64,000 nucleotides of DNA from a virus. The notes below the pieces were generated by a model. It was not told where the DNA came from. It was given only the letters and a program-made list of their open reading frames with translations, and ran no database searches. Location: IMG/VR virus record IMGVR_UViG_3300033066_002009, positions 8,961 through 72,960 of that record; one strand, written 5' to 3'. Shown here piece after piece: positions 15,153-52,907 of the stretch (position 1 is the stretch's first letter; each line of letters opens with the position of its first letter). The position numbers and the translations under genes were made by a program.

Positions 15153-15163
15153 GGTAAAAGAAT
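15153..15163 (+). promoter_or_regulatory. promoter-like motif GGTAAAAGAAT (extended -10-like)
   Basis: About 22 nt upstream of the RBS of the radical-SAM gene. The same motif recurs at 22810, 24323, 51104, 21264, 17365, 14423, 35818 and other sites. Confidence 0.5.
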
Positions 15164-15184
15164 TTGCCACCGAGGAGGCCGCTA

Positions 15185-16048
15185 ATGCTCGTCAAGGTCA
15201 CGAACGATTGTGAAATGGGATGCTCCCACTGCATGGAGGACAGCCGTCCGAAGACGGGTCAGCACATGACTCTCGAGGTCTTCGCCAAGACGCTCGATCT
15301 GATTCGACGTCTCGAGACCGAGGCGCGGCGGCGCGTCAACTACCGCGTCGTGCTTCTGAGCGGTGGCGAGCCCACGGACAATCCCAACATCATCAAGATG
15401 ATGGAGATGGTCTGCGAGCACGATCTGGGGCTGGTTCCGTGGCTGCTCACCCACGGGATGTGGATGGCCGACCCCGCGCGCCGCAAGGAGCTGATGCGCC
15501 GCGAGTGGAAGCACACGTGTTACCAAGTGACGAACGACCCGTTCTTCTATCCGAAGGACGTCATGGGGAGCAACTACACCAGCGAAGAACGCGTCGCTTC
15601 GATGAACATCGCCTTGCAGGACCCTCGGATCGTCGCAATCGGGAAGGTCACCATGATTTTCCCGATCGGTCGTGCGGCCACGAATTCCCGTGTCCTGCGG
15701 AATTCACCGGCGCCACCGCGCACGATCCCTACCTCCTTCAACTTCCGCGAGCTGACGCGCCGCACGGGCGATGTCCGCGAGGCCATCGGCATCTACCGGC
15801 AGAACGCAGTGACTGGGGGGCTCTCCGGACACTGCGCTCCGTCGGTCACCCACGAGGGCAAGCTCGTCGCAGGGGAGAGCCGCTTCTGCTGGGAAGTGGG
15901 CACGGTGGATTCGTCCTCGGCTGAGATCACGGCGAACGTGATCGCGATGGGGTCGTGCAACCGCTGCGGGCTCGAGGACAGGCTCGACGACCGGTTCCGA
16001 AAAATCATCGGGCTCCCGCCCAAGGAGGTGGCTAATGATGAGCACTGA
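15185..16048 (+). CDS. radical SAM domain protein
   Basis: RBS GAGGAGG. CxxxCxxC motif CEMGCSHC and LLSGGEPT. Confidence 0.65.
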   Translation: MLVKVTNDCEMGCSHCMEDSRPKTGQHMTLEVFAKTLDLIRRLETEARRRVNYRVVLLSGGEPTDNPNIIKMMEMVCEHDLGLVPWLLTHGMWMADPARRKELMRREWKHTCYQVTNDPFFYPKDVMGSNYTSEERVASMNIALQDPRIVAIGKVTMIFPIGRAATNSRVLRNSPAPPRTIPTSFNFRELTRRTGDVREAIGIYRQNAVTGGLSGHCAPSVTHEGKLVAGESRFCWEVGTVDSSSAEITANVIAMGSCNRCGLEDRLDDRFRKIIGLPPKEVANDEH

Positions 16049-16628
16049 CGAGCTGAAGGGCCTCGTCGAGCGGCTGTTCAATGTGGCGCAGTATCCGGAG
16101 GTCGCGCCGCTCAAGGATGCGATTCGCGTGCAGGGCATGGCGACCGCGTTCCTCCTCTCGACGACGTTCCTGCGTGACAAGTTCCCGAACGTTGATGTGC
16201 AGCGTCACGCGGGACGAATTCTCGATGCGGTCGAGAGCGGCAAGGTCTTCCTCTCGGTCGACTCGGCGTTTGACGCGCTGCACTTCCTGAGCGTGCACAG
16301 GACGGAGGTCCCGACGTCATCGCCGCCCCAGTGCTTCTCGACCATCATCTTCCCCGTCAACTGGCTGGAGATGTTCTCGTCCGATCCGGTGACGCAGCTC
16401 GGTGCGATCATCCACGTGGGAAGCCACGCGGCTGACGCAGCCGCCGGACGAATCCCTCCTGGGTTCGAGAACGAGGCAAAGGCCCGCGCTCTCGCATGGG
16501 AGGCGGAGTTCTACTTCGCCGTCGCGCAGCACATTCAGGGGTGGATTCCGAACGAAGGACAGCGCCGCGTCATGGGGCTCTACCCCGACGGAATCGAGAC
16601 TTCGAAGATCAAGATGATGATCTGGTAG
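16035..16628 (+). CDS. hypothetical protein
   Basis: RBS AAGGAGG then ATGATG. 197 aa. Confidence 0.5.
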   Translation: MMSTDELKGLVERLFNVAQYPEVAPLKDAIRVQGMATAFLLSTTFLRDKFPNVDVQRHAGRILDAVESGKVFLSVDSAFDALHFLSVHRTEVPTSSPPQCFSTIIFPVNWLEMFSSDPVTQLGAIIHVGSHAADAAAGRIPPGFENEAKARALAWEAEFYFAVAQHIQGWIPNEGQRRVMGLYPDGIETSKIKMMIW

Positions 16629-16642
16629 GAGAGGGACGACAC

Positions 16643-16897
16643 ATGTTCGAGAAGCTGATGTTGGCCTACAACCGCTGGCGCTACGGCATCAAGAAGTACA
16701 ATCTCGCGCTGCACTACAAGGGTATCACCTACGTCTGCGCAGCTCACGAGTTTTCGTGCCCCCCTGGTGATCTTGAGGAAATCCAGCGGGACGTCGCCGG
16801 AGAAGAGATCGCGAACTTCCTCGCGGCGAAGGGCGCATTCGCTGACGGGGCTTCGGCGCAGCTTCAGTATCAGTGGTTACCCACTTCGAAGCAGTGA
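16643..16897 (+). CDS. hypothetical protein
   Basis: RBS GAGAGGG. Confidence 0.4.
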   Translation: MFEKLMLAYNRWRYGIKKYNLALHYKGITYVCAAHEFSCPPGDLEEIQRDVAGEEIANFLAAKGAFADGASAQLQYQWLPTSKQ

Positions 16898-16959
16898 CGT
16901 TCAACGCCGTGCAACGAGAAACGGTGTCATCGCGGCACCGTTTCTTTTTAGGAGCCAAA

Positions 16960-17190: not shown

Positions 17191-17400
17191 GAACTCGGAT
17201 GAAGACTGGCCACGTCCCAGGTGACCTCGGTCAGTCTGTGAAATAAGCCTTGCTGGAGGGCCGACACCCAAGTAGGCGCCTTAGCAAGTCTTTCAAGAAG
17301 ACGCATTTGATGAAGGAGCGTGCGGTTCTCAAAGAGAGGGTTCGCAAGGAACTCAAGGCCTATAGGTAAAAGTATATAGACCCCTTCAAAAGGAGCCCCC

Positions 17401-18270
17401 ATGTACCTGCGCAGCTTTTCTCTCACCGTAGTTTTCATCATCTGCAGTGGCGGTGTTTGTCACTCGGAGGAGCCGATGCCGGCATCTTTGCCGGCGATCA
17501 ATGAGAAGTTCGACCGCCTGTGGGACGTCATTTCCAAGGATGATGACCTCCGTGCCAGATGGTACACCTCGTCCGCTCTTGAGCGGCACCAGGACGCCTG
17601 GGTACGTCTTCGTGCGGAAGCCGCCGCTGTGGTGCTCCGTCCGCGTACGAATGCCCAGTTGGTGAGTTCGAGAAGTGTGATCCGACTCTCGCAGGGCATG
17701 GTTGACGGGAGGCCTGTTCTCCTGCGCACAGATCGGTATGTCCGCAAGGTGGACTTCGGCGTCAACCCACAGCGTGCTCGACTGGGTAGAATCCTCGATG
17801 CGCAGTTCGGTACGCGATATCCGTCTGATGAGACGTGTTTCTATACGTCCGAGACAGAAGACGGCTCCCGTACGAGGGTCCCGAACTCAGAGTGCCCGAC
17901 GTTGTACCAGTCCCCTCCTTCGACTACTTCGAAGTCCGCCGCCCTGAGGATCGTCGAAGCGTCTTTCCCGCAGTACGCTGGGAAGACCATCTACGTACAC
18001 AATACCTGGGAATACGCGCACAAGTACAACAGCGTCGCCTATGCCGACTATGAAGAAGAGACGTGGGCCGTCCCCGGCAAGCGCTACATCGATTTCGAGA
18101 TTGATGCGCCGGACATCATCAAGGATCCCCCTGTCGGCGCGTTCCTGGTCGGCGGAGACCCTGGTGCGGCTATTCATTTCCAGAAGGTCGGTCACGGATG
18201 GGAGGCCCACATTGTGGTAAACAACTCAGCACCCCTCCTCATCGACGTCACGTTCCATCGCAAACAATGA
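17401..18270 (+). CDS. secreted hypothetical protein
   Basis: RBS AAAGGAG. N-terminal signal peptide MYLRSFSLTVVFIICSGGVCHS. Confidence 0.55.
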   Translation: MYLRSFSLTVVFIICSGGVCHSEEPMPASLPAINEKFDRLWDVISKDDDLRARWYTSSALERHQDAWVRLRAEAAAVVLRPRTNAQLVSSRSVIRLSQGMVDGRPVLLRTDRYVRKVDFGVNPQRARLGRILDAQFGTRYPSDETCFYTSETEDGSRTRVPNSECPTLYQSPPSTTSKSAALRIVEASFPQYAGKTIYVHNTWEYAHKYNSVAYADYEEETWAVPGKRYIDFEIDAPDIIKDPPVGAFLVGGDPGAAIHFQKVGHGWEAHIVVNNSAPLLIDVTFHRKQ

Positions 18271-18287
18271 ATAGGCGGTAAAAGGAG

Positions 18288-18929
18288 ATGCAGTTCAACC
18301 AGCCACGGAGGCCACAAGTGAAAGCGATTCTGGGCTACGAGATCCGTACGCGCCACACCCTCGAGGTGGACACCCCGACGCGGGAAATGACCTACGAGAA
18401 CGTCAAAGCGGCGCTCATCGCCGCGGGCATCCCGGAGGCGGAGCACGGCAACGTCAAGCCGATGAGCTTCGACCCCATGCCCGACGTCGGTCTTCGCGTC
18501 TGGCTGAAGGGCGAGACCGACTCCCGCAATCTGGGATACGGTTTCTACGCGGGGAATGTCGATGTCTTCGTCGCCGCCGACCACCAGGGAGAGCCAATTC
18601 ACATCGTCGAGAACGAAGCTGACCTGCCCCGCCTGTCGACGCTCCCCGCCGGGTCCACCCTGCAGATGGCCAAGGACGTCATGAAGTTCACCACGTCCCA
18701 CGGAGCCACGTTCTACAGCCTGAACACCGAATGGGATGCCGCGTCGCCGGATCCCGAGCCGGCCCAGGGGCTCACCGCCGAGCAGGCCGCCACCGCCGCG
18801 TCCACCAGCGAGCTGGTCAACGTCTTCGAGGGTGTCCCGGGCGTCACGATCGCCGGGGAACCGCTGCCCGACGTTCCGCCGCTCCCTGAGGTGCCGGCCA
18901 TCCAGGAGATCGCCGAGTCGGCGTCGTAG
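18288..18929 (+). CDS. hypothetical protein with Pro-rich C-terminus
   Basis: RBS AAAGGAG. Confidence 0.5.
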   Translation: MQFNQPRRPQVKAILGYEIRTRHTLEVDTPTREMTYENVKAALIAAGIPEAEHGNVKPMSFDPMPDVGLRVWLKGETDSRNLGYGFYAGNVDVFVAADHQGEPIHIVENEADLPRLSTLPAGSTLQMAKDVMKFTTSHGATFYSLNTEWDAASPDPEPAQGLTAEQAATAASTSELVNVFEGVPGVTIAGEPLPDVPPLPEVPAIQEIAESAS

Positions 18930-20867: not shown

Positions 20868-20901
20868 TCGGTGGTATCAGTAGTAGACAAAGGAGGCTTC
20901 C

Positions 20902-21198
20902 ATGCCCGTAGCGACCGTGACCAAGACCGTTCCGAAGAAGAAGACCGCGGTAAAAACCAAGCTGGTGACCGACGAGCAGTTCGATCGAGCCATCATCGCG
21001 CTGACCAAGCTGAATGACTCGCAGCTCGGTCGCCTGTGGGAGGCGGTTCGTGTGGAGACGCGGCTGCGCTTCTTCAACAGCGGCCTTGCGTCCGCGATTC
21101 GTGCGCTGCAGGAGTTGTCGCAGGACAACCCGGTGGCCAAGGCGTCGCTTACCAAGGCGATCGCGGCAATCGAGGCCAAGACCTGGCAACGGAAGTAG
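20902..21198 (+). CDS. Lys-rich small protein (possible DNA-binding)
   Basis: RBS AAAGGAGG. N-terminus KTVPKKKTAVKTK. Terminator immediately downstream. Confidence 0.5.
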   Translation: MPVATVTKTVPKKKTAVKTKLVTDEQFDRAIIALTKLNDSQLGRLWEAVRVETRLRFFNSGLASAIRALQELSQDNPVAKASLTKAIAAIEAKTWQRK

Positions 21199-21214
21199 CT
21201 CGGCCAGCAGACGG

Positions 21215-21249
21215 CCGGACACTGTTGTTTTGGTGTCCGGCTTTTTTTA
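21215..21249 (+). terminator. rho-independent terminator
   Basis: Hairpin CCGGACACTGTTGTTTTGGTGTCCGG followed by a T run. Confidence 0.7.
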
Positions 21250-21314
21250 GTTTCCTAAACTATTGGTAAAAGGAACAGCCACGCGGTTAATTTAATAGAG
21301 ACATGGAGGCCACC

Positions 21315-22760
21315 ATGAACCGTCCAACGTTGGTTGAACAGAAATGGCTCCCGGTGACGCCGGGGGTCGAGATCGACCGAATTCTCGGAGGGCGTTATCG
21401 GATCCTACGAGTAATCGGGGAGGGAGGAATGAGCAAGGTGCTGCTCGGATATGAGCACCTGCCGACGAAGGAGCCGGGCCCGCTCCTAGCACTTCGGCTG
21501 CTCCACCCGGAGTGGTTGGTGAAGGCCGATAATTTCACGCGGGAGCACTACCGGATTCGCTTCAACGCGGAGACGGAACTCCTGCAGAAGATGGTGGCGC
21601 ATCCTAACCTCGTGGGGTTCCAGGGCTCTGGAACACACACGGCGCCCGAAACCCCCGGGACGCCGCGACTGGAGGTTCCCTTCCAGGCTCTCGAGTACAT
21701 CGAGGGCCTCTCAACGGAAGCGCTGCTCAAGAAGCACGCAGGCATCCAGCCCGTCGCCGCAGTGCGCGTCGTGACTATGGCGGCGGCGGGTCTCGGTCAC
21801 GCGCACAAGCACGGGGTGATCCACCGTGATGTTTCCCCCGGAAATATCATGGTCTCCATCACCGGTGATGCTAAGGTCATCGACTTCGGCGTCGCCATCA
21901 GTAACAAGCTGAGGCGTCACACCGCGGTAGACGAGCGTGGGACTCCCAAGCTCGTGTACGGCAAGCCTGCCTACTACGCGCCAGAGCAGTTCATGACGCG
22001 GGCCCTGGACCCGAGGACCGACATCTACGGCCTCGGTCTCGTGCTCCTGGAGCTGATCACTGGCAGGCAGGCAATTCCACCGGATACCCGGATCCAGGAC
22101 CTCCTGGTGGCTCGCGATCGACTGGCGGCACAGCTCTGGGAGCGCTACACCGCCATCCCCGCAGAAGTGCTTCGTGTGGTGGAGCGGATGATCGCTGTCT
22201 CTCCGGATGATCGCTTCGGGAGCATGGAGAATGTCATCACGGCTCTCGAGCGTGCGATGCCTGAATCCGCGCTGACAACGACGCGCAACTTCATCGCCCG
22301 GTTCGCTCAGGTGGGTGTCTGCCTGGACCAGGCTGCGGACCATTCGCGGGAGTTCATCAAGGTGGTCCTCTCCGAGCCCATGCCGGTCCTCGATGGTACC
22401 GTATCCGCGAGAATCGAGCCGGCATCCGAGCACACGAAGGTGGGGGAGGTCGCCCCGCTGAATCTCCTTCCGCCGCCTGCGGCACCAGCCGACCTTCCAA
22501 GGATCGCCGCCGATTTCCTCGACGATCGGCGAACGCAGGCTCGTCCGGCACCGCAGTACACTGTGCCCATGAAACTCGTGGGCACGCCGATCGTCAATCG
22601 GGCCGAAGCCGCGCTCCCAGAGCTGCCGCAGGAGCCCCCTGCGGCCATGACGCTGCCGCCGGCCAATCAGTCCTACATCCGCCTTGGCATCATCATTGGT
22701 AGCATGGTCATTCTGCTGTTGAGCGCCATTCTGATTCTCCTGGTGCTCCGAATGCCTTGA
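21315..22760 (+). CDS. eukaryotic-like Ser/Thr protein kinase with C-terminal membrane anchor
   Basis: Motifs HRDVSPGNIMV (HRDxxxxN), DFGVA and APE. C-terminal hydrophobic helix IIIGSMVILLLSAILILLVL. Confidence 0.75.
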   Translation: MNRPTLVEQKWLPVTPGVEIDRILGGRYRILRVIGEGGMSKVLLGYEHLPTKEPGPLLALRLLHPEWLVKADNFTREHYRIRFNAETELLQKMVAHPNLVGFQGSGTHTAPETPGTPRLEVPFQALEYIEGLSTEALLKKHAGIQPVAAVRVVTMAAAGLGHAHKHGVIHRDVSPGNIMVSITGDAKVIDFGVAISNKLRRHTAVDERGTPKLVYGKPAYYAPEQFMTRALDPRTDIYGLGLVLLELITGRQAIPPDTRIQDLLVARDRLAAQLWERYTAIPAEVLRVVERMIAVSPDDRFGSMENVITALERAMPESALTTTRNFIARFAQVGVCLDQAADHSREFIKVVLSEPMPVLDGTVSARIEPASEHTKVGEVAPLNLLPPPAAPADLPRIAADFLDDRRTQARPAPQYTVPMKLVGTPIVNRAEAALPELPQEPPAAMTLPPANQSYIRLGIIIGSMVILLLSAILILLVLRMP

Positions 22761-22844
22761 TCGTAGGGAGGAGGGAGAGGCCGTGTCGACGGTCTTTCCC
22801 TTCTTTTGAGGTAAAAGAATTCGCCACACTCACAAGGAGGCCAC

Positions 22845-23774
22845 ATGTCTGAGACCCAGAAGAAGGAAAAAGCCCATGGTGCTCCGGGACACCACGAGAA
22901 TCACGGGCACCATTCCCAGGGCATGCGCCCGGAGGGGATTTCCCCGCAGGCGTGGGAGCGCAAGCTCCGGGAGCGCCGCCTGAACGCCCCATTGGGACCG
23001 TCTCTCGCGGATACGGAGCGGGCCCGGCTCTCCCCCCAGGTCATCGCCTTCCTGGGCAAGGAGCGCGCAGCCATGCTGCAGGTGGTCGACGTCTTCGAGA
23101 CGCAGGCTGCGGAGCGTGGCGCCGACAAGGATCTCGCCGGCCCGGATCTCATGCCCAAGCACGTCAGTATGGTGGTTGGCCCCGTAGTCGCGGCTCTCGG
23201 CAAGTACGGCGCGGAGGCCATCGAGAAGGCTGCCGGACTCGAGGGTGCCATCACCGAGGGCGCGGTCCTCGGCGAGGCTGATCTCGCGGTCGGGGAGGGA
23301 CTGATCGAAGGAATGGCCGGCGAGGGTGCCGCTGCGTCCGCGGTCGGCAAGCTCGCCAAGACGGGTCTCAAGGCCCTGGGGGGCAAGATCAGCCTGGGAC
23401 TCGCGGGCTGCGTGGGTCTCGCCACCACCATCGGGGCGACACTCGAGAAGATCCACGGGGACAACGTCAAGCGGTTCGACAAGGCCGCCGCGCATACCAT
23501 CGCGCAGCAGATGCGCGCTGGTATCGGTCAGGCCCTGGACAACTACACGGCCTGGGCAGCCTCCCCCGACGCCGACCCGGCCGAGATGCGGGCGCTCATG
23601 TCGACGCCGCCCTTCCAGGCCGAGCCGATCCTCCGAATCATGGAGAGCCAGCTCGCGGCGCGTCTGGGCGACGGCCCCGGCGTCACGCGCGAAGAGGCCA
23701 AGAACGCCAAGGGTCACGTCGAGAGCAACGTGACCGGCGACCTCAAGGCCATCGCAGATCGGCAGGCGCCGTGA
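22845..23774 (+). CDS. hypothetical protein (His-rich N-terminus)
   Basis: Promoter motif GAGGTAAAAGAAT, then RBS AAGGAGG, then ATG. Confidence 0.55.
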   Translation: MSETQKKEKAHGAPGHHENHGHHSQGMRPEGISPQAWERKLRERRLNAPLGPSLADTERARLSPQVIAFLGKERAAMLQVVDVFETQAAERGADKDLAGPDLMPKHVSMVVGPVVAALGKYGAEAIEKAAGLEGAITEGAVLGEADLAVGEGLIEGMAGEGAAASAVGKLAKTGLKALGGKISLGLAGCVGLATTIGATLEKIHGDNVKRFDKAAAHTIAQQMRAGIGQALDNYTAWAASPDADPAEMRALMSTPPFQAEPILRIMESQLAARLGDGPGVTREEAKNAKGHVESNVTGDLKAIADRQAP

Positions 23775-24298: not shown

Positions 24299-24346
24299 GG
24301 TTGTGATACTGCCTTAACTGACGGTAAAAGAATTAAGGAGGTTTCC

Positions 24347-24691
24347 ATGGCACGATTGTTTGTTTACATAAACACAGGGCCAAATTGGCTCTGCATTGGA
24401 ATTTTGCAGCCCGGTGATCCGCCCGGAACCTGCACAGACAACAGCAACACTCCGTCCAAGATCCTGTTCGGAATTGGCCCTGGCGGTGAGGCGGCGGTCA
24501 TCCGCCGAATTCCGTCGGAAAACACCGAGGACATCAGCCCCGAGGTTCGAGTCGTGAAGTCATTGGCGGGCGATACCCTCGCGCGCCTCGCCCTCAATGA
24601 GTCCTATGAAACGTCAATAATGACGCCCAGGGGCTATCGAGTTCGAATGAAGTGGCATTTCGCTGAAGACCCGGTAAGTGCTAATGGCTAA
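24347..24691 (+). CDS. hypothetical protein
   Basis: Promoter motif ACGGTAAAAGAAT, then RBS AAGGAGG. Confidence 0.5.
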   Translation: MARLFVYINTGPNWLCIGILQPGDPPGTCTDNSNTPSKILFGIGPGGEAAVIRRIPSENTEDISPEVRVVKSLAGDTLARLALNESYETSIMTPRGYRVRMKWHFAEDPVSANG

Positions 24692-25312: not shown

Positions 25313-25401
25313 TCAATTCTTGGTACAAGTAAATGACATAGCAAATGCTGACACCTGATGACCCCTCCGGGGGTTGTCGATTTTTTTCATCAGGAGACGT
25401 C

Positions 25402-27658: not shown

Positions 27659-27799
27659 AAAAAACATGTAAGACGGTACAAGTGTGGGACGCCCGGCTTT
27701 CACCGATCGGAGACGGCAGCTTCAGGCCTAGTAGTTCTTTCGAGATCGAAGTGCCTGCCGCTCCCCATGTACCTGGAGTCTGAAAGTTGAGGTGTTAAA

Positions 27800-37784: not shown

Positions 37785-37794
37785 TGGTATAAGG
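37785..37794 (+). promoter_or_regulatory. promoter-like motif TGGTATAAGG
   Basis: Precedes the 5' stem of sRNA-A by 6 nt. Confidence 0.5.
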
Positions 37795-37798
37795 AAAT

Positions 37799-37899
37799 GC
37801 AACGGGAACGCCGGTCGCACGACCGCTCGTGGAAACTTCCTGCCATGGTTGCTCGCCTTGGGCGGACAAGCTACATCGGCTCCCGTTGCAGTTTTTTTT
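37799..37899 (+). ncRNA. structured small RNA A (~101 nt; 5'/3' closing stem; Y-RNA-like architecture)
   Basis: The 5' sequence GCAACGGGAAC pairs with GCTCCCGTTGC immediately before T9. No ORF. Confidence 0.5.
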
Positions 37900-39236: not shown

Positions 39237-39268
39237 GGCCGCGACGCTTCGGCGTCGCGGTTTTTTTG
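39237..39268 (+). terminator. rho-independent terminator
   Basis: Hairpin GCCGCGACGCTTCGGCGTCGCGG followed by T7. Confidence 0.7.
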
Positions 39269-39277
39269 GTTAAAATT

Positions 39278-39351: not shown

Positions 39352-39354
39352 GTG

Positions 39355-39549: not shown

Positions 39550-39564
39550 GCGTTAATTATAGGG

Positions 39565-39637
39565 CGCCCCTGATGGGAATCGAACCCACCCAGTCTTGAT
39601 TGACAATCAAGCGTTCCCGCCAGGGAACCTCAAGGGC
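39565..39637 (-). tRNA. tRNA-Asp(GTC)
   Basis: Stem CTTGA/TCAAG, loop TTGTCAA, discriminator G. Confidence 0.85.
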
Positions 39638-39644
39638 AATTTGG

Positions 39645-39717
39645 GTGAAAATCGGGGGTCGAACCCGAACCTCCTGGTTCACAGCCAGGCGTGCACAGCC
39701 GGTACACCATGATCACC
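39645..39717 (-). tRNA. tRNA-His(GTG)
   Basis: Stem CCTGG/CCAGG, loop CTGTGAA, extra 5' G opposite discriminator C, T-arm TCGGGTTCGACCCCCGA. The acceptor stem has two mismatches. Confidence 0.65.
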
Positions 39718-39725
39718 GTAAATAC

Positions 39726-39736
39726 GGTAAAAGAAT
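39726..39736 (+). promoter_or_regulatory. promoter-like motif GGTAAAAGAAT
   Basis: Precedes the 5' stem of sRNA-B by 7 nt. Confidence 0.5.
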
Positions 39737-39739
39737 TAG

Positions 39740-39879
39740 TCGAGACGGACCTACAGTATCCTCCCCACGGCTTGTCAGCCCATTGGGCGGTGGTCTTCCG
39801 TTCTGCCGGGACCCGATCCTCCCTCGCAAAGGGCGGGCGCCACCACGAGGCTCTCCTGCCTCCGTCTCGATGTTTTTTT
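39740..39879 (+). ncRNA. structured small RNA B (~140 nt; 5'/3' closing stem)
   Basis: The 5' sequence TCGAGACGGA pairs with TCCGTCTCGA immediately before T7. No ORF. Confidence 0.5.
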
Positions 39880-39881
39880 GG

Positions 39882-39952
39882 TCCGCCACCAGGGAATCGA
39901 ACCCCGATTGCTCGCTAATCAGGCAAGCGTCCTACCGTTGAACGAGTGGCGG
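39882..39952 (-). tRNA. tRNA-Ile(GAT)
   Basis: Loop CTGATTA, CCA encoded. Confidence 0.85.
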
Positions 39953-39959
39953 ATGTTGT

Positions 39960-40010
39960 GGCCAAAAAAAGAGGAGGCGCAAGCGTCTCCTCTTTCCGGC
40001 CCCCTTTCGG
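39960..40010 (-). terminator. rho-independent terminator (two hairpins) for the coiled-coil gene
   Basis: On the - strand: AGGCCCCCGAAAGGGGGCC and GGAAAGAGGAGACGCTTGCGCCTCCTCTTTTTTT. Confidence 0.6.
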
Positions 40011-40018
40011 GGGCCTAA

Positions 40019-41056: not shown

Positions 41057-41162
41057 GTTCCTGGTCTCCTGCAAAAAAAGATGCGTACGTTGACGCCGCA
41101 GACGTCACCACGACTTCTGCGTTGTGCATCTTCTTCTACCAAGCACTTGACGTTTTTAATGG

Positions 41163-41236
<74 letters not shown>

Positions 41237-41332
41237 ATGCTGCGTTGCGCCTCCTACCCCGAGCTTTCCAGCGGAATGAACCGCTTCGGGTGTAGTACCC
41301 ATGCAGGTTGGACGGCGCTCCTCCGTGATTGG

Positions 41333-41406
41333 TCGGCGTAGCTGGATTCGAACCAGCGATCCCTCGCTCCCAAAGCGAGTGCGATACCAGACTTCGCTAT
41401 ACGCCG
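41333..41406 (-). tRNA. tRNA-Pro(TGG)
   Basis: Stem CTCGC/GCGAG, loop TTTGGGA, CCA encoded. Confidence 0.85.
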
Positions 41407-41425
41407 AATTTAGGTAAAAGGTTTT

Positions 41426-41548
41426 GCGGATACACGTCTTATTGGCGGTATGGCTGCCAATGTTTGAAGCGATTTACCGGCACGAGAAGAGCCCCGGTGC
41501 AGCTGCGTTGGTCCTCATATCGGGCTCATCGATAAGCCGTGTGTCCGC
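41426..41548 (+). ncRNA. structured small RNA C (~123 nt; 5'/3' closing stem; no T-run terminator)
   Basis: Motif AGGTAAAAGG lies 6 nt upstream. The 5' sequence GCGGATACACG pairs with CGTGTGTCCGC at the 3' end. Confidence 0.4.
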
Positions 41549-41553
41549 GTTAG

Positions 41554-41625
41554 TACCCCGTACCGGATTCGAACCGGCGTCCTCGGATTGAAAGTCCAAG
41601 TGTCCTTCCCATAGACGAACGGGGT
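41554..41625 (-). tRNA. tRNA-Glu(TTC)
   Basis: Stem TTGGA/TCCGA, loop CTTTCAA. Confidence 0.75.
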
Positions 41626-41631
41626 GTCCAG

Positions 41632-41702
41632 TGACCCTGGAGGGAATCGAACCCTCGTTTTTTGGCTGAGAACCAATTTGCCTACCATTAGCAGACAGGG
41701 CC
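41632..41702 (-). tRNA. tRNA-Glu(CTC)
   Basis: Loop TTCTCAG, T-arm GAGGGTTCGATTCCCTC. Confidence 0.8.
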
Positions 41703-41747
41703 TAATGCGGGTAAAAGTTAGTAAGGACCCCTCACAAAGGAGAGTGC

Positions 41748-42401
41748 ATGAAGACGTTGATCGTTACCCTGGCCCTGCTGGTGCTCCCTGCCGCGGCAGG
41801 CTGCGACATTCCAAGGCCGCCAAACGGCAGCATCACCTGCAGTCCCATGTTCCAGTGCCCCGAAGACGCCGACAACCCTGGCACGTTCATGAAGTGCTGC
41901 TGGGACAATCGCTGCTACCGCGGCGACTGCCCACCGATGGCGCCGGGCGCCAGTCCGGTGTGCCCCGACAAGCAGAAGGACGCCCGGGAGGTCGACATCG
42001 ACTGCGGCGCCGCGTCCTGCCAGACGTGCGCGGTCGGCAAGATGTGCGAGTCGGACGCCGACTGCGCCAGCAACTTCTGCTACAACAGTCGATGCACGGC
42101 CACGCAGGATCCCTGCAACAACGGGGTCATCGACGGCCTCGAGACTGCCGCCGACTGCGGTGGCGGGGAATGCCCCCGCTGCGGCAATGGCAAGGGATGT
42201 ATCAGCGGCAACGACTGCGTGTCCACGCACTGCATCGGCATGGTCTGCACTTCGATGAACCTCTTCTCGCCCCTCGACGACGTCGACTTCAAGGGGCAGG
42301 AGAGCCGGGTGCCGTGGCACCTGCGTCCGCTCAAGAAGATGACGGACGACGACTGGCGACAGGCCGTCGAGGCAGCGGAGAAGTCCCAACGTTCCACCTG
42401 A
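41748..42401 (+). CDS. secreted lipoprotein with tandem Cys-rich repeats (CxxCxxGxxCxxDxDCxSxxC)
   Basis: Motif GGGTAAAAGTT, then RBS AAGGAG. Signal peptide with lipobox LPAAAGC. Three or more Cys-rich repeat modules reminiscent of myxobacterial-type Cys-rich repeats. Confidence 0.6.
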   Translation: MKTLIVTLALLVLPAAAGCDIPRPPNGSITCSPMFQCPEDADNPGTFMKCCWDNRCYRGDCPPMAPGASPVCPDKQKDAREVDIDCGAASCQTCAVGKMCESDADCASNFCYNSRCTATQDPCNNGVIDGLETAADCGGGECPRCGNGKGCISGNDCVSTHCIGMVCTSMNLFSPLDDVDFKGQESRVPWHLRPLKKMTDDDWRQAVEAAEKSQRST

Positions 42402-42432
42402 TGTAGACGGGCGGGGTGTATCAAGCCCTGGG

Positions 42433-42464
42433 AGGGTCCGGCTGTATCGCCGGGCCCTTTTTTT
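42433..42464 (+). terminator. rho-independent terminator
   Basis: Hairpin GGGTCCGGCTGTATCGCCGGGCCC followed by T8. Confidence 0.7.
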
Positions 42465-42466
42465 GG

Positions 42467-42534
42467 ACCACCGCCGGGGAGTTGAACCCCGCTACGCCGG
42501 GTTGCAATCGGCGGCCATCCCGGATGCGCGGCAG
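42467..42534 (-). tRNA. tRNA-Cys(GCA)-like with shortened D-arm (68 nt); alternatively reads as TGC
   Basis: T-arm CGGGGTTCAACTCCCCG, discriminator U, loop TTGCAAC with A31/C39, G3:U70 in the acceptor stem. Confidence 0.45.
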
Positions 42535-42540
42535 ACTTTG

Positions 42541-42612
42541 CTCCAGAGGTAGGACTCGAACCTACGTCTCACCGGTTAACAGCCGGGCGCTCTGCCATTG
42601 AGCTACACTGGA
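42541..42612 (-). tRNA. tRNA-Asn(GTT)
   Basis: D stem GCTC/GAGC, loop CTGTTAA, discriminator G. Confidence 0.8.
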
Positions 42613-42625
42613 ATGAAACTACGGG

Positions 42626-42697
42626 AGCCGGCTACGAGAATCGAACTCGTTACCACCTGCTTACAAGGCAGGCGCTCTGCCAATGAGCTATGCCGGC
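42626..42697 (-). tRNA. tRNA-Thr(TGT)
   Basis: Stem CCTGC/GCAGG, loop CTTGTAA. Confidence 0.85.
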
Positions 42698-42715
42698 ATT
42701 TTGGTATAAGTATTT

Positions 42716-42826
42716 GACGACCGCGGGCAAGAAACTCAGGCCAAGGCTGACCGCAGTACTTGGAGCCAAAAGCTCCGCTCTCTGACGGATCCTCGGCAAA
42801 GGGGTAAGCCCGCAGTCGTCTTTTTT
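42716..42826 (+). ncRNA. structured small RNA D (~111 nt; 13-bp 5'/3' closing stem)
   Basis: TGGTATAAG lies 6 nt upstream. GACGACCGCGGGC pairs with GCCCGCAGTCGTC before T6. Internal hairpin GGAGCCAAAAGCTCC. Confidence 0.55.
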
Positions 42827-42828
42827 AG

Positions 42829-42899
42829 TTCCGGGACAAGGACTCGAACCTTGATAGGCGGCTTCAGAAACCGCCGTCCTGCCATTAGACGATCCCGGA
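42829..42899 (-). tRNA. tRNA-Gln(CTG)
   Basis: Acceptor TCCGGGA/TCCCGGA, loop TTCTGAA. Confidence 0.8.
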
Positions 42900-42917
42900 A
42901 TGTTGGTACAAGGATTT

Positions 42918-43023
42918 GACCCTACCACGCACGGTGTTGAGCCTCGTGCTCCTCTCCTCGCGCCCCCATACCCCGTGGGGGAGTTCGGCGTTCCGCTGTG
43001 CGTGACTGGGGTCACTATTTTTT
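42918..43023 (+). ncRNA. structured small RNA E (~106 nt; 5'/3' closing stem)
   Basis: TGGTACAAGG lies 6 nt upstream. GACCC..ACGCACGG pairs with CCGCTGTGCGT..GGGGTC before the T run. Confidence 0.5.
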
Positions 43024-43025
43024 AG

Positions 43026-43096
43026 TTCCGGTGGAAGGAATCGAACCTCCGTAGCAGGCTTCAAAGTCCCGCGTCCTGCCATTGAACGACACCGGA
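43026..43096 (-). tRNA. tRNA-Gln(TTG)
   Basis: Acceptor TCCGGTG/CACCGGA, loop CTTTGAA. Confidence 0.8.
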
Positions 43097-43169
43097 AAAA
43101 CTACTTACGCCCTGTTAGCCGCACACGCGGGCGTACCGTGTCACTCACTAAGACGGCGTTTCATCTTTG

Positions 43170-43240
43170 TGCGGGTAGGGAGAATCGAACTCCCGTGACC
43201 AGTTTGGAAGACTAGCGTTCTACCATTGAACTACACCCGC
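43170..43240 (-). tRNA. tRNA-Gly(TCC)
   Basis: D stem GTTC/GAAC, loop CTTCCAA. Confidence 0.85.
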
Positions 43241-43245
43241 GTTAG

Positions 43246-43318
43246 TGCCCCCGGTGGGAGTCGAACCCACAACTAACCGATTAAAAGTCGGCTACGCTGC
43301 CAATTGCGTCACGGAGAC
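43246..43318 (-). tRNA. tRNA-Lys(TTT) second copy
   Basis: D stem ACGC/GCGT, loop CTTTTAA, T-arm GTGGGTTCGACTCCCAC. Confidence 0.8.
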
Positions 43319-43323
43319 GTTGG

Positions 43324-43395
43324 TGGCGTGGGCTGGATTCTCACCAGCACTTCGAGCCTCTAGGGCTCGCGTCTTAAAAATTTGACCACCGCGCC
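43324..43395 (-). tRNA. degenerate tRNA-like element (anticodon loop CCTAGAG; D-loop lacks GG; T-loop TGAGAAT)
   Basis: Acceptor GGCGCGG/CCACGCC with CCA encoded. Perfect anticodon stem CGAGC/GCTCG. The conserved D-loop and T-loop nucleotides are absent. Confidence 0.4.
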
Positions 43396-43400
43396 ATTAG

Positions 43401-43473
43401 TGCCCCCACTCGGGTTCGAACCGAGATCACCCGGTTAAGAGCCGGATCGATTAGCCAATTATCGGATGGAGGC
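43401..43473 (-). tRNA. tRNA-Arg(TCT)
   Basis: D stem CGAT/ATCG, loop CTCTTAA, T-arm CTCGGTTCGAACCCGAG. Confidence 0.85.
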
Positions 43474-43585
43474 ATTGTGCAGGGCAACAGCCCTGCTATT
43501 TCGTCAAATTCCACTATTCTTTTTTCAGTTTGCCCGACTACACGGTTTTCGCATTTCGCTACTCAACTCGCCGGGTAAAACTCAG

Positions 43586-43670
43586 TGGAGCGGATAGGAC
43601 TCGAACCTATGAAGACCCGAAGGTCGACTGATTTACAGTCAGCTGTCTTTGCCGCTTGAACAACCGCTCC
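43586..43670 (-). tRNA. tRNA-Tyr(GTA), type II
   Basis: Acceptor GGAGCGG/CCGCTCC, loop CTGTAAA, long variable arm. Confidence 0.85.
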
Positions 43671-43716
43671 ATTAAAGCTCGATATTTATATACGGCCTCG
43701 AAGACCGGGTCGTTGG

Positions 43717-43788
43717 TGCGGATGGCGGGAATCGAACCCGCGGCCTGATGCTTGGCAAGCACCCGTGGTACCACTCCACTACATCCGC
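43717..43788 (-). tRNA. tRNA-Gly(GCC)
   Basis: D stem GTGG/CCAC, loop TTGCCAA, CCA encoded. Confidence 0.85.
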
Positions 43789-43792
43789 GCAG

Positions 43793-43863
43793 AGCCCTAG
43801 GGGAGAGTCGAACTCCCATTGCCTGTGTACGAAACAGGCAGTCTACCGTTGACTTACCAGGGC
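43793..43863 (-). tRNA. tRNA-Thr(CGT)
   Basis: D stem AGTC/GACT, stem CCTGT/ACAGG, loop TTCGTAC. Confidence 0.85.
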
Positions 43864-43864
43864 G

Positions 43865-43934
43865 CATGTCGCCAGGGAATCGAACCCTGAAGCAGGAGTT
43901 TTGGAGGCTCCATGGTGACCATCACCTGCGACAT
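43865..43934 (-). tRNA. tRNA-Trp(CCA)
   Basis: Acceptor ATGTCGC/GCGACAT, loop CTCCAAA, short D-loop. Confidence 0.7.
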
Positions 43935-44112
43935 ATGTACATCGTAAACGAAAAAGGCCGGACCTTTTTGGGGCCCGGCCTTGGAAGTTCCCTTGTTAGG
44001 GGGTTTTCTTCTTAGGCGGGGCTCCGAGACCAATCGAGATTTTCGGACCCGTTCACGCGCTGCGACTTACCTGCCGGGTAAATGCCCGCACTTCCGCACG
44101 TATAATGCATTG

Positions 44113-44229
44113 CCATAGCGCTAGTGCGCTTGGCTTTGCTTACGGATGGTGTGGGTGAAAACAACATGATGAAACAACCTTAGCAGGGCGCCGTTTCGGC
44201 GTCAAGTATTTTTTTTTAGGTACAAGGTG
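44113..44229 (+). ncRNA. candidate small RNA F (TATAAT promoter to terminator, ~115 nt, no ORF)
   Basis: TATAAT at 44101-44106. Hairpin GGCGCCGTTTCGGCGTC followed by T9 at 44221-44229. Confidence 0.35.
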
Positions 44230-44243
44230 TAGAGGAGGATCTC

Positions 44244-44714: not shown

Positions 44715-45173
44715 ATGGCTGTCAGTTGGGACCGATATTTCATGAATATTGCGAGCGTTGTGTCGACAAGGGCGACCTGCGATCGCAAACACGTTGGGGC
44801 GGTAATTGTAAGTAAAGACCGAACGATTCTTTCCACAGGTTACAATGGTGCCCCACGAGGTCTTCCGCATTGTGACGACGTTGGGCACGAATTGAAAGAA
44901 ATGGGTGGGAGGGCAAGTTGTGTCAGGACCGTTCACGCAGAGGCCAACGCCATTGCGCAAGCTGCCTGTAATGGCGTCGCTCTCGCCGATTCCGTTATCT
45001 ATACGACTGCGAGCCCTTGTTATGACTGCATGAAGTTGATCATCAATGCAGGCATCAAGCGAGTCATTTGCAACGAGTTTTACGAAAGCCGCTATGGCGT
45101 ATCCGGCGACATGGTCGCTTTGTCCGCGAGTGCCGGCGTTCCGATGGAACTGCTTGACAAAGGAAGTGATTAA
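44715..45173 (+). CDS. dCMP deaminase (cytidine/deoxycytidylate deaminase family)
   Basis: RBS GGAGGG. Motifs HAEANAI and PCYDCMKLI (zinc-binding HxE...PCxxC). Confidence 0.75.
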
Positions 45174-45541
45174 TGGGCGAAGAAAATACCGCACTCAAAT
45201 TGCCAGTAGTACAAGATTTTTTTGATACGCGGCCAACTACGCGGGCTGATTGTTTATCTGGTGGGATAAACGAAGCCCGGCCTTGCCCCTACGTATCCTG
45301 CCGATACCACCTGTATCTTGACCTTTCTGAGGCAGGCACGTTGCGCATAAATTTTCCAACCGTTGAACCCGAAGATATGGGCCAACTCGCAGAGACGTGC
45401 GCACTTGACGTAGCAGCACGTGGTGGTGTCACCCTCGAGGAAGTAGGCCAACTGATGAATGTTACGAGAGAACGCATCCGACAGCTCGAAGCCGCGGGAA
45501 TCCGGCGCATGAGACGCCCTGTCGCGCTCATAACCGAATAG
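45173..45541 (+). CDS. sigma-70 region 4 (HTH) domain protein
   Basis: C-terminal [31 protein letters not shown] matches the sigma region 4.2 HTH. Confidence 0.5.
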
Positions 45542-47368: not shown

Positions 47369-47456
47369 AAGCCCCGCGCCTTCGGTATAAGACCAAGCAC
47401 AAGCCGCAGGGGTTTCACCCGGCGCCCTGCGATAGTTTGGCAAAGGAGGTTTCTTT

Positions 47457-47684
47457 TTGGACACGAGCGAGGAGACGTGTACGGAGACGCGGGGTGTATC
47501 CACGGCGCGGCGGAGGCATTGGTACGGCCATTGTCCTCACTGCAGTTTTGTATTTGACTGCAAGGGCTGCCCCGATGATGAGATACGTTGCCAAGACTGC
47601 GGAGGATTCTTTTTTCTCGAAGACATCGGATCGTCTTCTTCTACGGAAAATGGACTGTCCTCCGTAATGGCGCGTGCGGTGTAA
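47457..47684 (+). CDS. zinc-ribbon small protein (TTG start)
   Basis: RBS AAAGGAGG. Sequence CPHCS...CKGC...CQDCG. Confidence 0.4.
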   Translation: MDTSEETCTETRGVSTARRRHWYGHCPHCSFVFDCKGCPDDEIRCQDCGGFFFLEDIGSSSSTENGLSSVMARAV

Positions 47685-49198: not shown

Positions 49199-49284
49199 TA
49201 ATGCAGTACCAATAATTCCGCCTCCCGAGTGCTCCAAATGCCGGTGTATAGCGGGTATAAGAGTTATGAAAGGGAGGATTAGCT

Positions 49285-49419
49285 ATGGACACAGTCTGGC
49301 CACGACTGTGCCATGCGCTTGTCCAGATAAACCCGCTAATCATGTGGGTTCTCGATCCGGGAGGATTGCCTCCGGGGACGTGGACAGACTTGATTCGCCG
49401 GGCCCTGGCGGCGTAGGGT
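49285..49419 (+). CDS. small ORF (44 aa)
   Basis: Motif GGGTATAAGAG followed by RBS AGGGAGG and ATG. Confidence 0.3.
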
Positions 49420-49522
49420 CACATAGGGAGGTCGCCTGCCACGGCGACTTCTCTTTTTTATTTGACTAGTTGACACTGCGTACTTTGACATTGTACGGTG
49501 CAAGTGAAAGGACATGATACAT

Positions 49523-50643: not shown

Positions 50644-51104
50644 TGCCGTTTACGCATTATCCCAAGCTCGAGTTCAACATCATCGGCGCCTGGGTATCAC
50701 CTGCACCCCCGGATAAACCTAATTTTTTGCAAATGCCTCGGTTCTCTCGGGTGAACCTACTCAACAATATTGAGTTATCCGATGATCCCCCGATCCTCTA
50801 CCATTCTGCCCAGAATTTCACCCGTTTTTTCGGTTCCGTCGCCTCTGATAAAAAGGTGGAGCTTCGTTTTGACTTCTCAAATGATGATGTCCATCTCTTA
50901 GATGGAAATCCCGTCTCTGACGAGAACATCTCAAAATTGAACTACGATGCGGAGGCCATGGTTTTGAACTATGACCCATCGAAGCAAGGCGCAACAGGTA
51001 AGTATTTGGTCACGATCTATGGGCGTTGGCTTCGTGTGCAACTGAAGTTCCCCGACGGGGTTCCTTCGTACGTGCGCGCTTACGTACGTGCTTCCGTGTT
51101 CTAG
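50643..51104 (+). CDS. hypothetical protein
   Basis: Start overlaps the upstream stop. Confidence 0.45.
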   Translation: MPFTHYPKLEFNIIGAWVSPAPPDKPNFLQMPRFSRVNLLNNIELSDDPPILYHSAQNFTRFFGSVASDKKVELRFDFSNDDVHLLDGNPVSDENISKLNYDAEAMVLNYDPSKQGATGKYLVTIYGRWLRVQLKFPDGVPSYVRAYVRASVF

Positions 51105-51130
51105 GTAAAAGAATACGGAGGTATCACTGG

Positions 51131-51355
51131 ATGCCGATCATTGCATTGAAGTCCGCCGTAAGCGGAACAGTATGGGCTCACTCGACAAGCCCAGGGCAAG
51201 AAGTCACAGAGGGTAGCGGCGTCCTCATCGTGGAATCCATGAAGATGGAGATTCCGGTGGACGCCACCTGCGATGGGGTGGTGGTGTGGCTCAAGCCCGT
51301 CGGAGAGTCGATGAACGAAGGGGAGATGGTAGCGACGATCGAAACGAAAGACTAG
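51131..51355 (+). CDS. biotin/lipoyl attachment domain protein (BCCP-like)
   Basis: Motif GGTAAAAGAAT, then RBS GGAGG. ESMKMEIPV matches the biotinyl-lysine motif E(A/S)MKM. Confidence 0.5.
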   Translation: MPIIALKSAVSGTVWAHSTSPGQEVTEGSGVLIVESMKMEIPVDATCDGVVVWLKPVGESMNEGEMVATIETKD

Positions 51356-52323
51356 CGCGTCAGGCTACTGACGGCCTTCGCTGCTAGGATTCCAAGAGGA
51401 ATGGATCCTAGCGCGAGGGCCGTTTCTGTATTTGAAAGAGGGCTCTGAAGATATGGTGTCCATCCAGAGCCAGAAGTTCTCTGCCCCTTTACGAGTGAAA
51501 GCAGTTTTTCGTGCCGGCTCATGTCCGCAGGGCTCATTCCTTTTTCTTCCAACATTTTGTCAAGTCGCTGCTGATCCCATCCTTCACGGGGGCGCAATTT
51601 CATCAAAGCACCTCCGCCCAGATCGATGGGGTCGCCCGCCAAAGTGTCAAAGGCTGACGCACCTACTTGCCCTGCCAGGTTGTAATCCAGCATGTCTGAC
51701 GCATAGGCACCGCGACCACGTCGGATAATCTGTTGCTTTATCAACGCAGGATCTTTTTTAATATGGAGAACCGCGTCGAACACTTCTGGATCGTAGGCCC
51801 GCAATAGGTTAAAATGTTCCAAGATTTCCCCTGCCCTTGGCGGTCTTGGCATTGTTTCGATGTGACCGCCACCTAGCGCTGTATTCACGGCGTTGTTTGG
51901 AAGCCAGTCAAGCCCGTAGTGCTTCATCCCCAGTTGTTGTGAGATAGCACGGCTTAATGTTGTTTTACCGGTCCCAGGCGGCGCGTCTACTGCAAATCGA
52001 AGTGTTGCAGGGTCTACACCGCGCTGCTTTAATACTTCTCCAATTCGGTCAGCTGTTGCCAACGCGTTCGAAGGAATCTCAGACGCGGCGTCCTGTTGTT
52101 GCAGATCGCCTTTTCTAGAGACAGTATTTTTTAGTGTCGCGCGGATCCCTGGCTTTGACAGCATGAGCCCGCCAATCGTCGCTGCAGGAATACCAATCCC
52201 CGCCGCCCACGGTAGGGCCTTCTGCCACCCAGGCCTACCATCGTCTTTTTCAATCTTGAACTTGAAGGCGAATTTCTCTAAACCACGAAAAGCACCCTCG
52301 TTGTAAGTCGCCGCTAAGGTCAT
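51352..52323 (-). CDS. membrane-anchored P-loop NTPase (kinase or zeta-toxin-like)
   Basis: Walker A motif PPGTGKTT. N-terminal hydrophobic helix. Confidence 0.5.
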   Translation of the reverse strand: MTLAATYNEGAFRGLEKFAFKFKIEKDDGRPGWQKALPWAAGIGIPAATIGGLMLSKPGIRATLKNTVSRKGDLQQQDAASEIPSNALATADRIGEVLKQRGVDPATLRFAVDAPPGTGKTTLSRAISQQLGMKHYGLDWLPNNAVNTALGGGHIETMPRPPRAGEILEHFNLLRAYDPEVFDAVLHIKKDPALIKQQIIRRGRGAYASDMLDYNLAGQVGASAFDTLAGDPIDLGGGALMKLRPREGWDQQRLDKMLEEKGMSPADMSRHEKLLSLVKGQRTSGSGWTPYLQSPLSNTETALALGSIPLGILAAKAVSSLTR

Positions 52324-52326
52324 TAA

Positions 52327-52749
52327 TCACCGAGGGACGGGTGGCGGAGGGATTGGTCGACGACTAATAATTGTATCGGGTGCACGTACTCCGGTTGGTG
52401 AAATATTCAACCTTTTGCTGACTCCACCGCCTTTTGCGGCCATTTGTGACGCGATACTGTGCTGGATCTCTTTGAATCCGCCCGGCCCTAAAAGTCCCTC
52501 TAGTTCCAGCATTTGCTGGAGGCCCAGCCCTGCCGCCTTTGGGTTGGCTTCTTCCTCAAGGTAATGGGATAGCCCTGTATGGGGAAGGGGCGGCGGGACA
52601 GGGGTCATCGGCCCTGCCATGGTAGTTTCCGGTGGAATATCCTTTGCAGCTTCCACTGCTTCAGGAAATTGGTCAGCTAGCGTTGGGGCGTCTAGCGCAA
52701 ATTTCGAAAATACCCTACGGACGCCTGTCACGTATTCATACGTAAGCAT
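52327..52749 (-). CDS. hypothetical protein
   Basis: Minus-strand ORF. Minus-strand TATAAT near 52757. Confidence 0.4.
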   Translation of the reverse strand: MLTYEYVTGVRRVFSKFALDAPTLADQFPEAVEAAKDIPPETTMAGPMTPVPPPLPHTGLSHYLEEEANPKAAGLGLQQMLELEGLLGPGGFKEIQHSIASQMAAKGGGVSKRLNISPTGVRAPDTIISRRPIPPPPVPR

Positions 52750-52907
52750 GCTCTAATTATAGACCCATGACCCAGGCCTCTAAAGGACTCTAAACGGCTA
52801 GCTGCTATTGGGTATAAGGAAGTGTCATCGGAAGTCCGGCCACGGGCTTCCGAAGTCTGCGTTCCGAATGGACGCAGGCTTTGCAAACCTCAGACGGGAG
52901 AAGAAAG

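Follow-up and report, generated by a model that had tools for sequence, protein, structure and literature searches.

The late promoters of phage T4 consist of the sequence TATAAATA, which is read by gp55 together with gp33 and the gp45 clamp. In T7-type promoters, conservation covers about 17–23 positions between −17 and +6. The middle and late promoters of the Thermus phage P23-45, together with gp39, represent an extended −10 class that is independent of a −35 element, and such −35-independent classes are described as a means by which phages escape the shut-off of −35-dependent host promoters (PMC3950348). Here we analyze a recurrent 8-base motif, GGTANAAG (GGTA, any base, AAG), in a window of 64,000 nt, positions 8,961 to 72,960 of the IMG/VR record IMGVR_UViG_3300033066_002009. 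The window is a 64 kb part of a contig of at least 108.5 kb, and the sequence recovered beyond its left and right ends amounts to ~0.9 kb and 3 kb, respectively. Judged from its sequence context, GGTANAAG is rather likely to form the core of a class of phage promoters that need no −35 element.

Motif copies and the putative transcription start

The invariant core of the motif, GGTAHAAG, has 26 matches in the window and all of them lie on the + strand. Dinucleotide shuffles give an expectation of 3.36 ± 2.02 matches on both strands together, and none of 100 shuffles reached 26. The recurrent + strand motif of the original prediction is thereby confirmed: all 21 coordinates given for it hold the core within ±1 nt, and five further exact copies (1025, 7998, 25322, 27675 and 44219) were absent from that list. 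The consensus proposed at the time was correct in its core and too strict as the 11-mer TGGTAWAAGRA, which has only three exact matches; the shorter TGGTAWAAG has only six, and the leading T is present in 8 of the 26 copies. As to the accompanying claim that conventional TATAAT boxes are rare, eight were found compared with 9.1 expected, which is chance level and no depletion. In an unbiased 7-mer scan, GGTAAAA, GTAAAAG and GGTATAA were among the top strand-specific words, ranking beside the Shine-Dalgarno word and directly after T-runs and the word of the tRNA T-arm. A literature search for the motif as a string gave no relevant match.

All 26 core copies are intergenic in a gene set whose features cover 71% of the window, and six of them are intergenic also by independent gene calls on Logan contigs. 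With a weight matrix, three degenerate copies (20873, 37421 and 4239) were added, as was a single copy on the − strand (41133–41140, GGTAGAAG-aaga-TG), which lies 5′ of the − strand open reading frame (ORF) 40019–41056 in a region with few such genes; the orientation of the motif therefore follows the gene. Within the 13.5 kb of the structural module, no copy points in the direction of the genes. Start codons follow the first base of the motif after 24–50 nt in 15 of the 16 tabulated ORF-linked copies (14 exact ones and the degenerate copy at 20873), the exception being the copy at 1025 with 87 nt.

For the analysis of the flanks, which played no part in site selection, the copies were aligned on the core with its first G as position 0. 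Position 12 is T in 16 and position 13 is G in 21 of the 26 copies, and the core combined with TG at positions 12–13 has 14 matches compared with 0.24 expected. Between the core and T12-G13 lies an A/T-rich segment, and a weak G-[A/C]-C-A-[A/C]-C follows G13. No positional conservation that could represent a −35 element was found upstream among the aligned copies. Ten copies lie 2–18 nt from the 5′ end of a − strand tRNA, and tRNA gene sequence takes up the entire −35 region of eight of them and a part of it in the other two (36215 and 37421, at 17–18 nt). Due to this tRNA gene sequence in the −35 region of ten copies, the signal cannot include a specific −35 element.

A pyrimidine-purine pair is typical of bacterial start sites, and T12-G13 is such a pair. 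None of the 16 ORF-linked sites has a Shine-Dalgarno sequence that begins before position 12, and four have one that begins at positions 12–14 (24323, 35818, 44219 and 51104). With a transcription start beyond about position 13, the Shine-Dalgarno sequence at these four sites would be lost. Taking T12/G13, the limits set by the Shine-Dalgarno sequences and the stems of the hairpin RNAs described below together, we infer a start at about position 13, 5–6 nt past the hexamer. An alternative −10 register (AAGRAW, with a start at position 17) was rejected; it would remove the Shine-Dalgarno sequence at the same four sites.

Three copies directly follow a terminator (15106–15138 before 15153, 21213–21242 before 21265 and 44187–44203 before 44219), and these pairs leave no room for another promoter. 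Further terminators at 25356, 30323, 36640, 39237 and 49425 close units, giving the layout terminator, motif, unit, terminator. The short and fairly fixed distance to the Shine-Dalgarno sequence would also suit an element that acts in the 5′ leaders of RNAs, either as an endoribonuclease processing site or as the operator of a translational repressor. We consider this very improbable, because no upstream transcript would carry the several copies that stand directly after strong terminators or beside opposite-strand tRNA genes. Moreover, the hairpin RNAs exclude the motif from their structure, and the motif resembles a −10 element that is followed by a pyrimidine-purine start step.

A sigma54-type promoter was considered as well, in which the motif would supply the GG element and its flank a TTGC-like element. 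The best copies indeed read TGG...TTTGC (e.g. TGGTATAAGGATTTGCC at 36214), and Myxococcota, the putative host lineage, make heavy use of sigma54. The probability of this explanation is nevertheless negligible: the spacing is GG-N11-G and not GG-N10-GC, C follows the G in 9 of the 26 copies only, and the central TANAAG would stay unexplained. In addition, initiation 12 nt downstream would leave the transcript without its Shine-Dalgarno sequence at 24323, 44219, 35818 and 51104, where it would coincide with the start codon or fall beyond it. A sigma54 promoter was ruled out on the N11 spacing and on this start-codon geometry.

Candidate readers of the motif

The position, orientation and spacing of the copies, together with the deduced start site, strongly support a function as promoter. 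In position, orientation and spacing the data fit the promoter that the original prediction had claimed; the reader of the motif, named there as a phage-specific or phage-modified RNA polymerase (RNAP) holoenzyme, is left to several candidates. In sigma70 numbering, the motif would read G(−14) G(−13) T(−12) A(−11) N(−10) A(−9) A(−8) G(−7), and its best copies, TGGTATAAG, depart from TGnTATAAT, the extended −10 consensus, at the last base only. The class would drive + strand non-structural units of early or middle type, comprising a kinase, a radical SAM enzyme and many small ORFs. It would also drive the block of deoxycytidine monophosphate (dCMP) deaminase, sigma region-4 protein and ligase, and the short hairpin RNAs between the − strand tRNA clusters. 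Its reader would be an RNAP holoenzyme with a sigma70-family factor, for which the candidates would be the primary sigma of the host, acting in extended −10 mode and perhaps after modification by the phage, or a phage sigma encoded beyond the window. A phage-specific or phage-modified holoenzyme is plausible because the core varies far less than ordinary host promoters do and carries an invariant G in place of T(−7). The motif could as well be read by a divergent or phage-encoded sigma, or by a phage RNAP encoded outside the window.

Several observations weigh against a −35-independent promoter class of the extended −10 kind. Position −7 is G in all 26 copies, compared with an almost universal T in sigma70-family promoters. 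T(−15) of the TG extension is found in 8 of the 26 copies only, while G(−14) is found in all. Of the hexamer bases, all 26 copies have T(−12) and A(−11), and none has T(−7). With G at −7 and a weak T(−15), strict membership in the extended −10 class therefore fails; the independence from a −35 element agrees with that class. The discriminator, with a deduced length of 5 nt, is short, and the start site is deduced from the sequence. Genes for a sigma region 2, a gp55-like protein or an RNAP were not detected among the 81 window proteins scanned. For a comparison of conservation, scans of IMG/VR and of metagenomes of the Joint Genome Institute (JGI) with the window proteins yielded no relatives. 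The invariant G at −7 makes the motif a test case for how the last −10 position is read by sigma region 2 or by a phage factor.

Some of the same features would be expected of a promoter for a phage-encoded RNAP, either T7-like with a single subunit or phiKZ/AR9-like with several, whose gene lies outside the window. GGTANAAG would then form the recognition block (−13 to −6), with the AT-rich segment RAWWT for melting and the initiating G behind it. The near-invariance of 26 copies, their layout of recognition block, AT-rich segment at −5 to −1 and G at +1, the lack of a −35 element and a G at −7 that is unlike sigma70 promoters are in line with this, and in a contig of at least 108.5 kb the gene could lie beyond the 64 kb studied here. 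We regard a phage RNAP as unlikely, since only ~8–14 positions are conserved compared with 17–23 in T7-type promoters and the best copies closely match TGnTATAAT. Furthermore, no RNAP-like gene is present among the 81 window proteins, and the gp5-like baseplate hub points to a contractile-tail phage and not to a T7-like podovirus. Less probable again is that the motif reflects the specificity of an uncharacterized sigma factor or phage-remodeled RNAP that needs G(−7) and G-G(−14/−13), with the hairpin units as functional antisense RNAs. If this were true, the antisense RNAs could guide a double-strand-specific (RNase III-type) cleavage of the tRNA precursor, or could instead tune tRNA output via convergent transcription.

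As partner of the motif, the original prediction had put forward gp45173, a protein of 122 aa encoded at 45173..45541 on the + strand. The protein holds a genuine sigma70 region-4 domain as its only sigma region, preceded by a Cys-rich N-terminal half. Region 4 of sigma70 reads −35 elements. No −35 element is conserved here, and a role of gp45173 as specificity partner is not supported. Its gene lies downstream of the motif copy at 44219, so this class cannot depend on it when transcription first begins. The family also counts against such a role: it comprises ~1,900 homologs with 50–65% identity on bacterial or prophage-like contigs, some of them named Deltaproteobacteria, and the one homolog neighborhood examined contained no motif copy. 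gp45173 could be an RNAP-remodeling factor or a regulator of the next class; the sequence CTATAATT at 45553 follows immediately.

Two other promoter-like sequences occur in the window. Sites of the form TTGAC-N17-19-TAnnnT stand ahead of the tmRNA (49470, +) and of two embedded − strand genes (29858, − and 283, −), and also at 44205 (−), possibly ahead of the tRNA array; they look like ordinary host-type promoters. CTATAATT has five copies, at 45553 (+), 48074 (+), 52756 (−), 54593 (−) and 39556 (−), and these precede genes of structural type and the ligase gene. In two cases an ATG lies exactly 6 nt downstream of the copy, which suggests leaderless mRNAs there. CTATAATT is a candidate late promoter, and the three sequences may form a temporal scheme of host-type promoters, then GGTANAAG, then CTATAATT. 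The motif separates at least three promoter-like classes in this genome and offers a ready map of transcription units in a phage without sequenced relatives.

Putative transcription units and predicted hairpin RNAs in the tRNA array

The leftmost exact copy in the window (1025–1038, GGTATAAG..TG), which is intergenic also in the Logan gene calls, lies 5′ of ORF 1112–1513 (GNAT). Counted from the first G of the motif, start codons follow at position 32 for the copy at 7998–8011 (ORF 8030–8650), at position 35 for 14423–14436 (ATG, ORF 14458–14844), at position 36 for 17365–17378 (ATG, ORF 17401–18270), at position 41 for 18277–18290 (GTG, ORF 18318–18929) and again at position 35 for 22810–22823 (ATG, ORF 22845–23774). 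The degenerate copy GGTATCAG (20873–20886) has its ATG at position 29 (ORF 20902–21198). The radical SAM ORF 15185–16048 has its ATG at position 32 of the copy at 15153–15166, which stands 14 nt past the strong terminator 15106–15138. Similarly, the copy at 21265–21278 lies past the terminator 21213–21242 and precedes the Ser/Thr kinase ORF 21315–22760. At 24323–24336 the Shine-Dalgarno sequence begins at position 12–13 and the ATG is found at position 24 (ORF 24347–24691). Of the next three copies, GGTACAAG at 25322–25335 is followed by the terminator 25356–25379, another GGTACAAG at 27675–27688 lies 370 nt 5′ of ORF 28045–28971, and that at 29893–29906 heads a unit closed by the terminator 30323–30348.

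To the right of the tRNA array, the copy at 44219–44232 stands past the hairpin 44187–44203 with its T-run and heads the run of ORF 44244, dCMP deaminase, sigma region-4 protein and ligase. The copy at 47384–47397 is followed by AAGGAGG and the TTG start of the Cys-rich (zinc-ribbon-like) ORF 47457–47684, and the one at 49254–49267 by the small ORF 49285–49416 and the terminator 49425–49454. At 51104–51117 the Shine-Dalgarno sequence begins at position 13 and the ATG at position 27 (ORF 51131–51355). The last copy (52811–52824) lies 5′ of the + strand ORF 52908–53225, at the border of the − strand structural block.

The array itself consists of 37 − strand tRNAs (35727–43934) in ~18 clusters. 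Many of these clusters are separated by + strand units, each made up of a putative promoter, a hairpin RNA of 100–135 nt or a non-coding RNA of 450 nt, and a T-run (37799–37899, 39739–39878, 41426–41552, 42716–42827, 42918–43024 and 36228–36675). The longest of them starts from the copy at 36215–36228, 18 nt from the 5′ end of a tRNA-Ser, and extends for ~450 nt to the terminator 36640–36669. The adjoining − strand gene (36677–37216) encodes an HNH endonuclease (HNH_5, E = 2.7e-17). Three copies in the array are linked to + strand ORFs. The copy at 35818–35831, 6 nt from the 5′ end of a − strand tRNA-Ser, has its Shine-Dalgarno sequence at position 13 and its ATG at position 26 (ORF 35844–36047). 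The copy at 38954–38967, 2 nt from a tRNA-Ala, precedes ORF 38986–39222 and the terminator 39237–39262, and that at 41710–41723, 7 nt from a tRNA-Glu, precedes ORF 41748–42401. The degenerate copy GGTAATAG (37421–37434), 17 nt from a tRNA-Leu, is followed by a hairpin and a T-run.

Five copies in the tRNA region, which appear as orphans, precede imperfect hairpins of 100–135 nt. The non-coding RNAs that had been proposed downstream of the motif are thus real as predicted structures: they fold better than shuffled sequences, with + strand z-scores from −2.9 to −4.8. The units of motif and hairpin RNA extend over 37786..37899 (RNA 37799–37899, z −4.1, ending in T8), 39726..39878 (RNA 39739–39878, z −2.9), 41413..41552 (RNA 41426–41552, z −4.3), 42703..42827 (RNA 42716–42827, z −4.8) and 42905..43024 (motif copy GGTACAAG, RNA 42918–43024, z −4.3). 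For two of them the + strand folds much better than the − strand, which reaches only −1.4 at 41413 and −1.1 at 42905. In all five, the terminal stem begins exactly at G13 and leaves the motif outside the structure. A run of 6–8 T follows the stem in four of the five, while the unit at 41413 ends with GTTA. The five RNAs could not be aligned with each other and are not homologous to one another, and their spacers matched no Rfam family even at permissive E-values. According to the sequence, each of these RNAs would be perfectly antisense to a spacer of a poly-tRNA precursor. These antisense units interleaved with the tRNA array are the most unusual thing that the motif has uncovered.

The close contact between motif and tRNA genes raises the question whether the motif is bidirectional and also initiates transcription of the neighboring − strand tRNA cluster, close to or at the 5′ end of the mature tRNA. 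In ten cases the motif is 2–18 nt away from the 5′ end of the tRNA that leads a − strand cluster (5–7 nt in six cases), which is compatible with this, and the tRNA 5′ end is found ~19–20 bp from the deduced + strand start. Bidirectional bacterial promoters have overlapping −10 elements with a typical spacing of 18–19 bp (bioRxiv 10.1101/2020.01.31.928960). Also, neither a shared −35 element nor any other recurring promoter-like element was found ahead of these − strand clusters. Such a double function is still improbable. The bottom strand reads YCTTWT or TATACC/TTTACC and has no A(−11) and T(−7) in either register, so reciprocal −10 bases are missing, and the gap between motif and tRNA varies from 2 to 18 nt where a fixed offset of 18 bp would be needed. 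Eight other tRNA clusters have no motif copy, and transcription of the entire array could start from TTGACG-N17-TAAGGT at 44205 (−). That motif and tRNA genes adjoin is better explained by the + strand units, which fill each spacer completely. A bidirectional tRNA promoter was rejected on base identity, on the variable gap and on the eight clusters without a copy.

Terminator-like hairpins on the − strand are located at 43954–43982 and 39953–40018, immediately 5′ of the tRNA-Trp that opens the array (5′ end 43934) and of a tRNA-Ile (39952).

Genome context and comparison with known systems

Genes on the + strand occupy the window from 1 to ~51.3 kb and comprise many small ORFs as well as genes for a Ser/Thr kinase, a radical SAM enzyme, dCMP deaminase, ligase and a full-length major vault protein (MVP) homolog. 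From ~51.3 to 64 kb the genes lie on the − strand and include a gp5-like baseplate hub, a holin and peptidases. The structural genes of this part (51352–63813, −) mostly lack a strong AGGAGG Shine-Dalgarno sequence, which nearly all + strand genes have. In total, 39 tRNA genes were found, 37 of them on the − strand at 35.7–43.9 kb, and a tmRNA gene is encoded on the + strand. The + strand ORFs also contain a eukaryote-like set of signaling and protease functions, with the Ser/Thr protein kinase (21315–22760), a dual-specificity phosphatase domain, a papain-family peptidase and metallophosphoesterases, with two copies of phrog_547.

In the search for relatives, neither 20 kb of the window by megablast nor the hub protein by tblastn matched any of 50,697 phage records. 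The sole match of a 309-aa window protein among 5.8 billion proteins was the protein itself, on a JGI contig of 108.5 kb. The MVP homolog (30956–33595, +; 879 aa, MVP_shoulder E = 1.6e-24) is full-length and lies in a phage-like genome; viral MVPs have been reported once before, in a preprint (bioRxiv 10.1101/2023.11.10.566534). It has 670 homologs, of which the best besides itself share 59% and 54% identity and are encoded on bacterial-looking contigs, a description based on gene content and on a reading of the intergenic DNA, not on a calculation of GC content. Among five MVP homolog loci that were fetched, GGTAHAAG occurs once each in three and is absent from two. The host is possibly a myxobacterium (Myxococcota), and the sole basis for this guess is that the metagenome-assembled genomes holding the closest MVP and region-4 homologs bear such names.

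Of the described systems, the P23-45 class resembles GGTANAAG in its −10-like element, the invariant G at −14, the absence of a −35 element and the many copies ahead of phage genes, with TGGTATAAG as the best copies. In contrast to P23-45 and to extended −10 promoters, every copy here has G and not T at −7, G(−13) is invariant and T(−15) is found in 8 of 26 copies. Also unlike in P23-45, the discriminator is deduced to be 5 nt long, and no gp39-like factor was identified in the window. With the late promoters of T4 the motif shares the property of a short, near-invariant element at −10 only that defines a class of phage genes. However, its sequence differs from TATAAATA, it precedes non-structural genes and is absent from the structural block, and no gp55 homolog was found among the 81 window proteins. 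CTATAATT, which stands ahead of structural genes, is the closer analog of the T4 late promoters. Promoters of T7-type single-subunit RNAPs similarly combine a conserved upstream block, an AT-rich segment from −4 to −1 and an initiating G, but the conserved region is much shorter here and a polymerase gene was not seen in the window.

For the hairpin RNAs, the nearest parallel is the tRNA cluster of T4, which reportedly contains the stable RNAs C and D, small structured RNAs among phage tRNA genes. In contrast to these, the hairpin RNAs described here lie on the strand opposite to the tRNAs, every one comes with a putative promoter and a T-run of its own, and no homology links them to each other. 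The arrangement also recalls bidirectional bacterial promoters, with the 5′ end of an opposite-strand gene ~19–20 bp from the deduced start, although the bottom strand does not mirror the key bases and the spacing is variable. Taken together, the motif class is a familiar kind of feature that is unusual for its G at −7.

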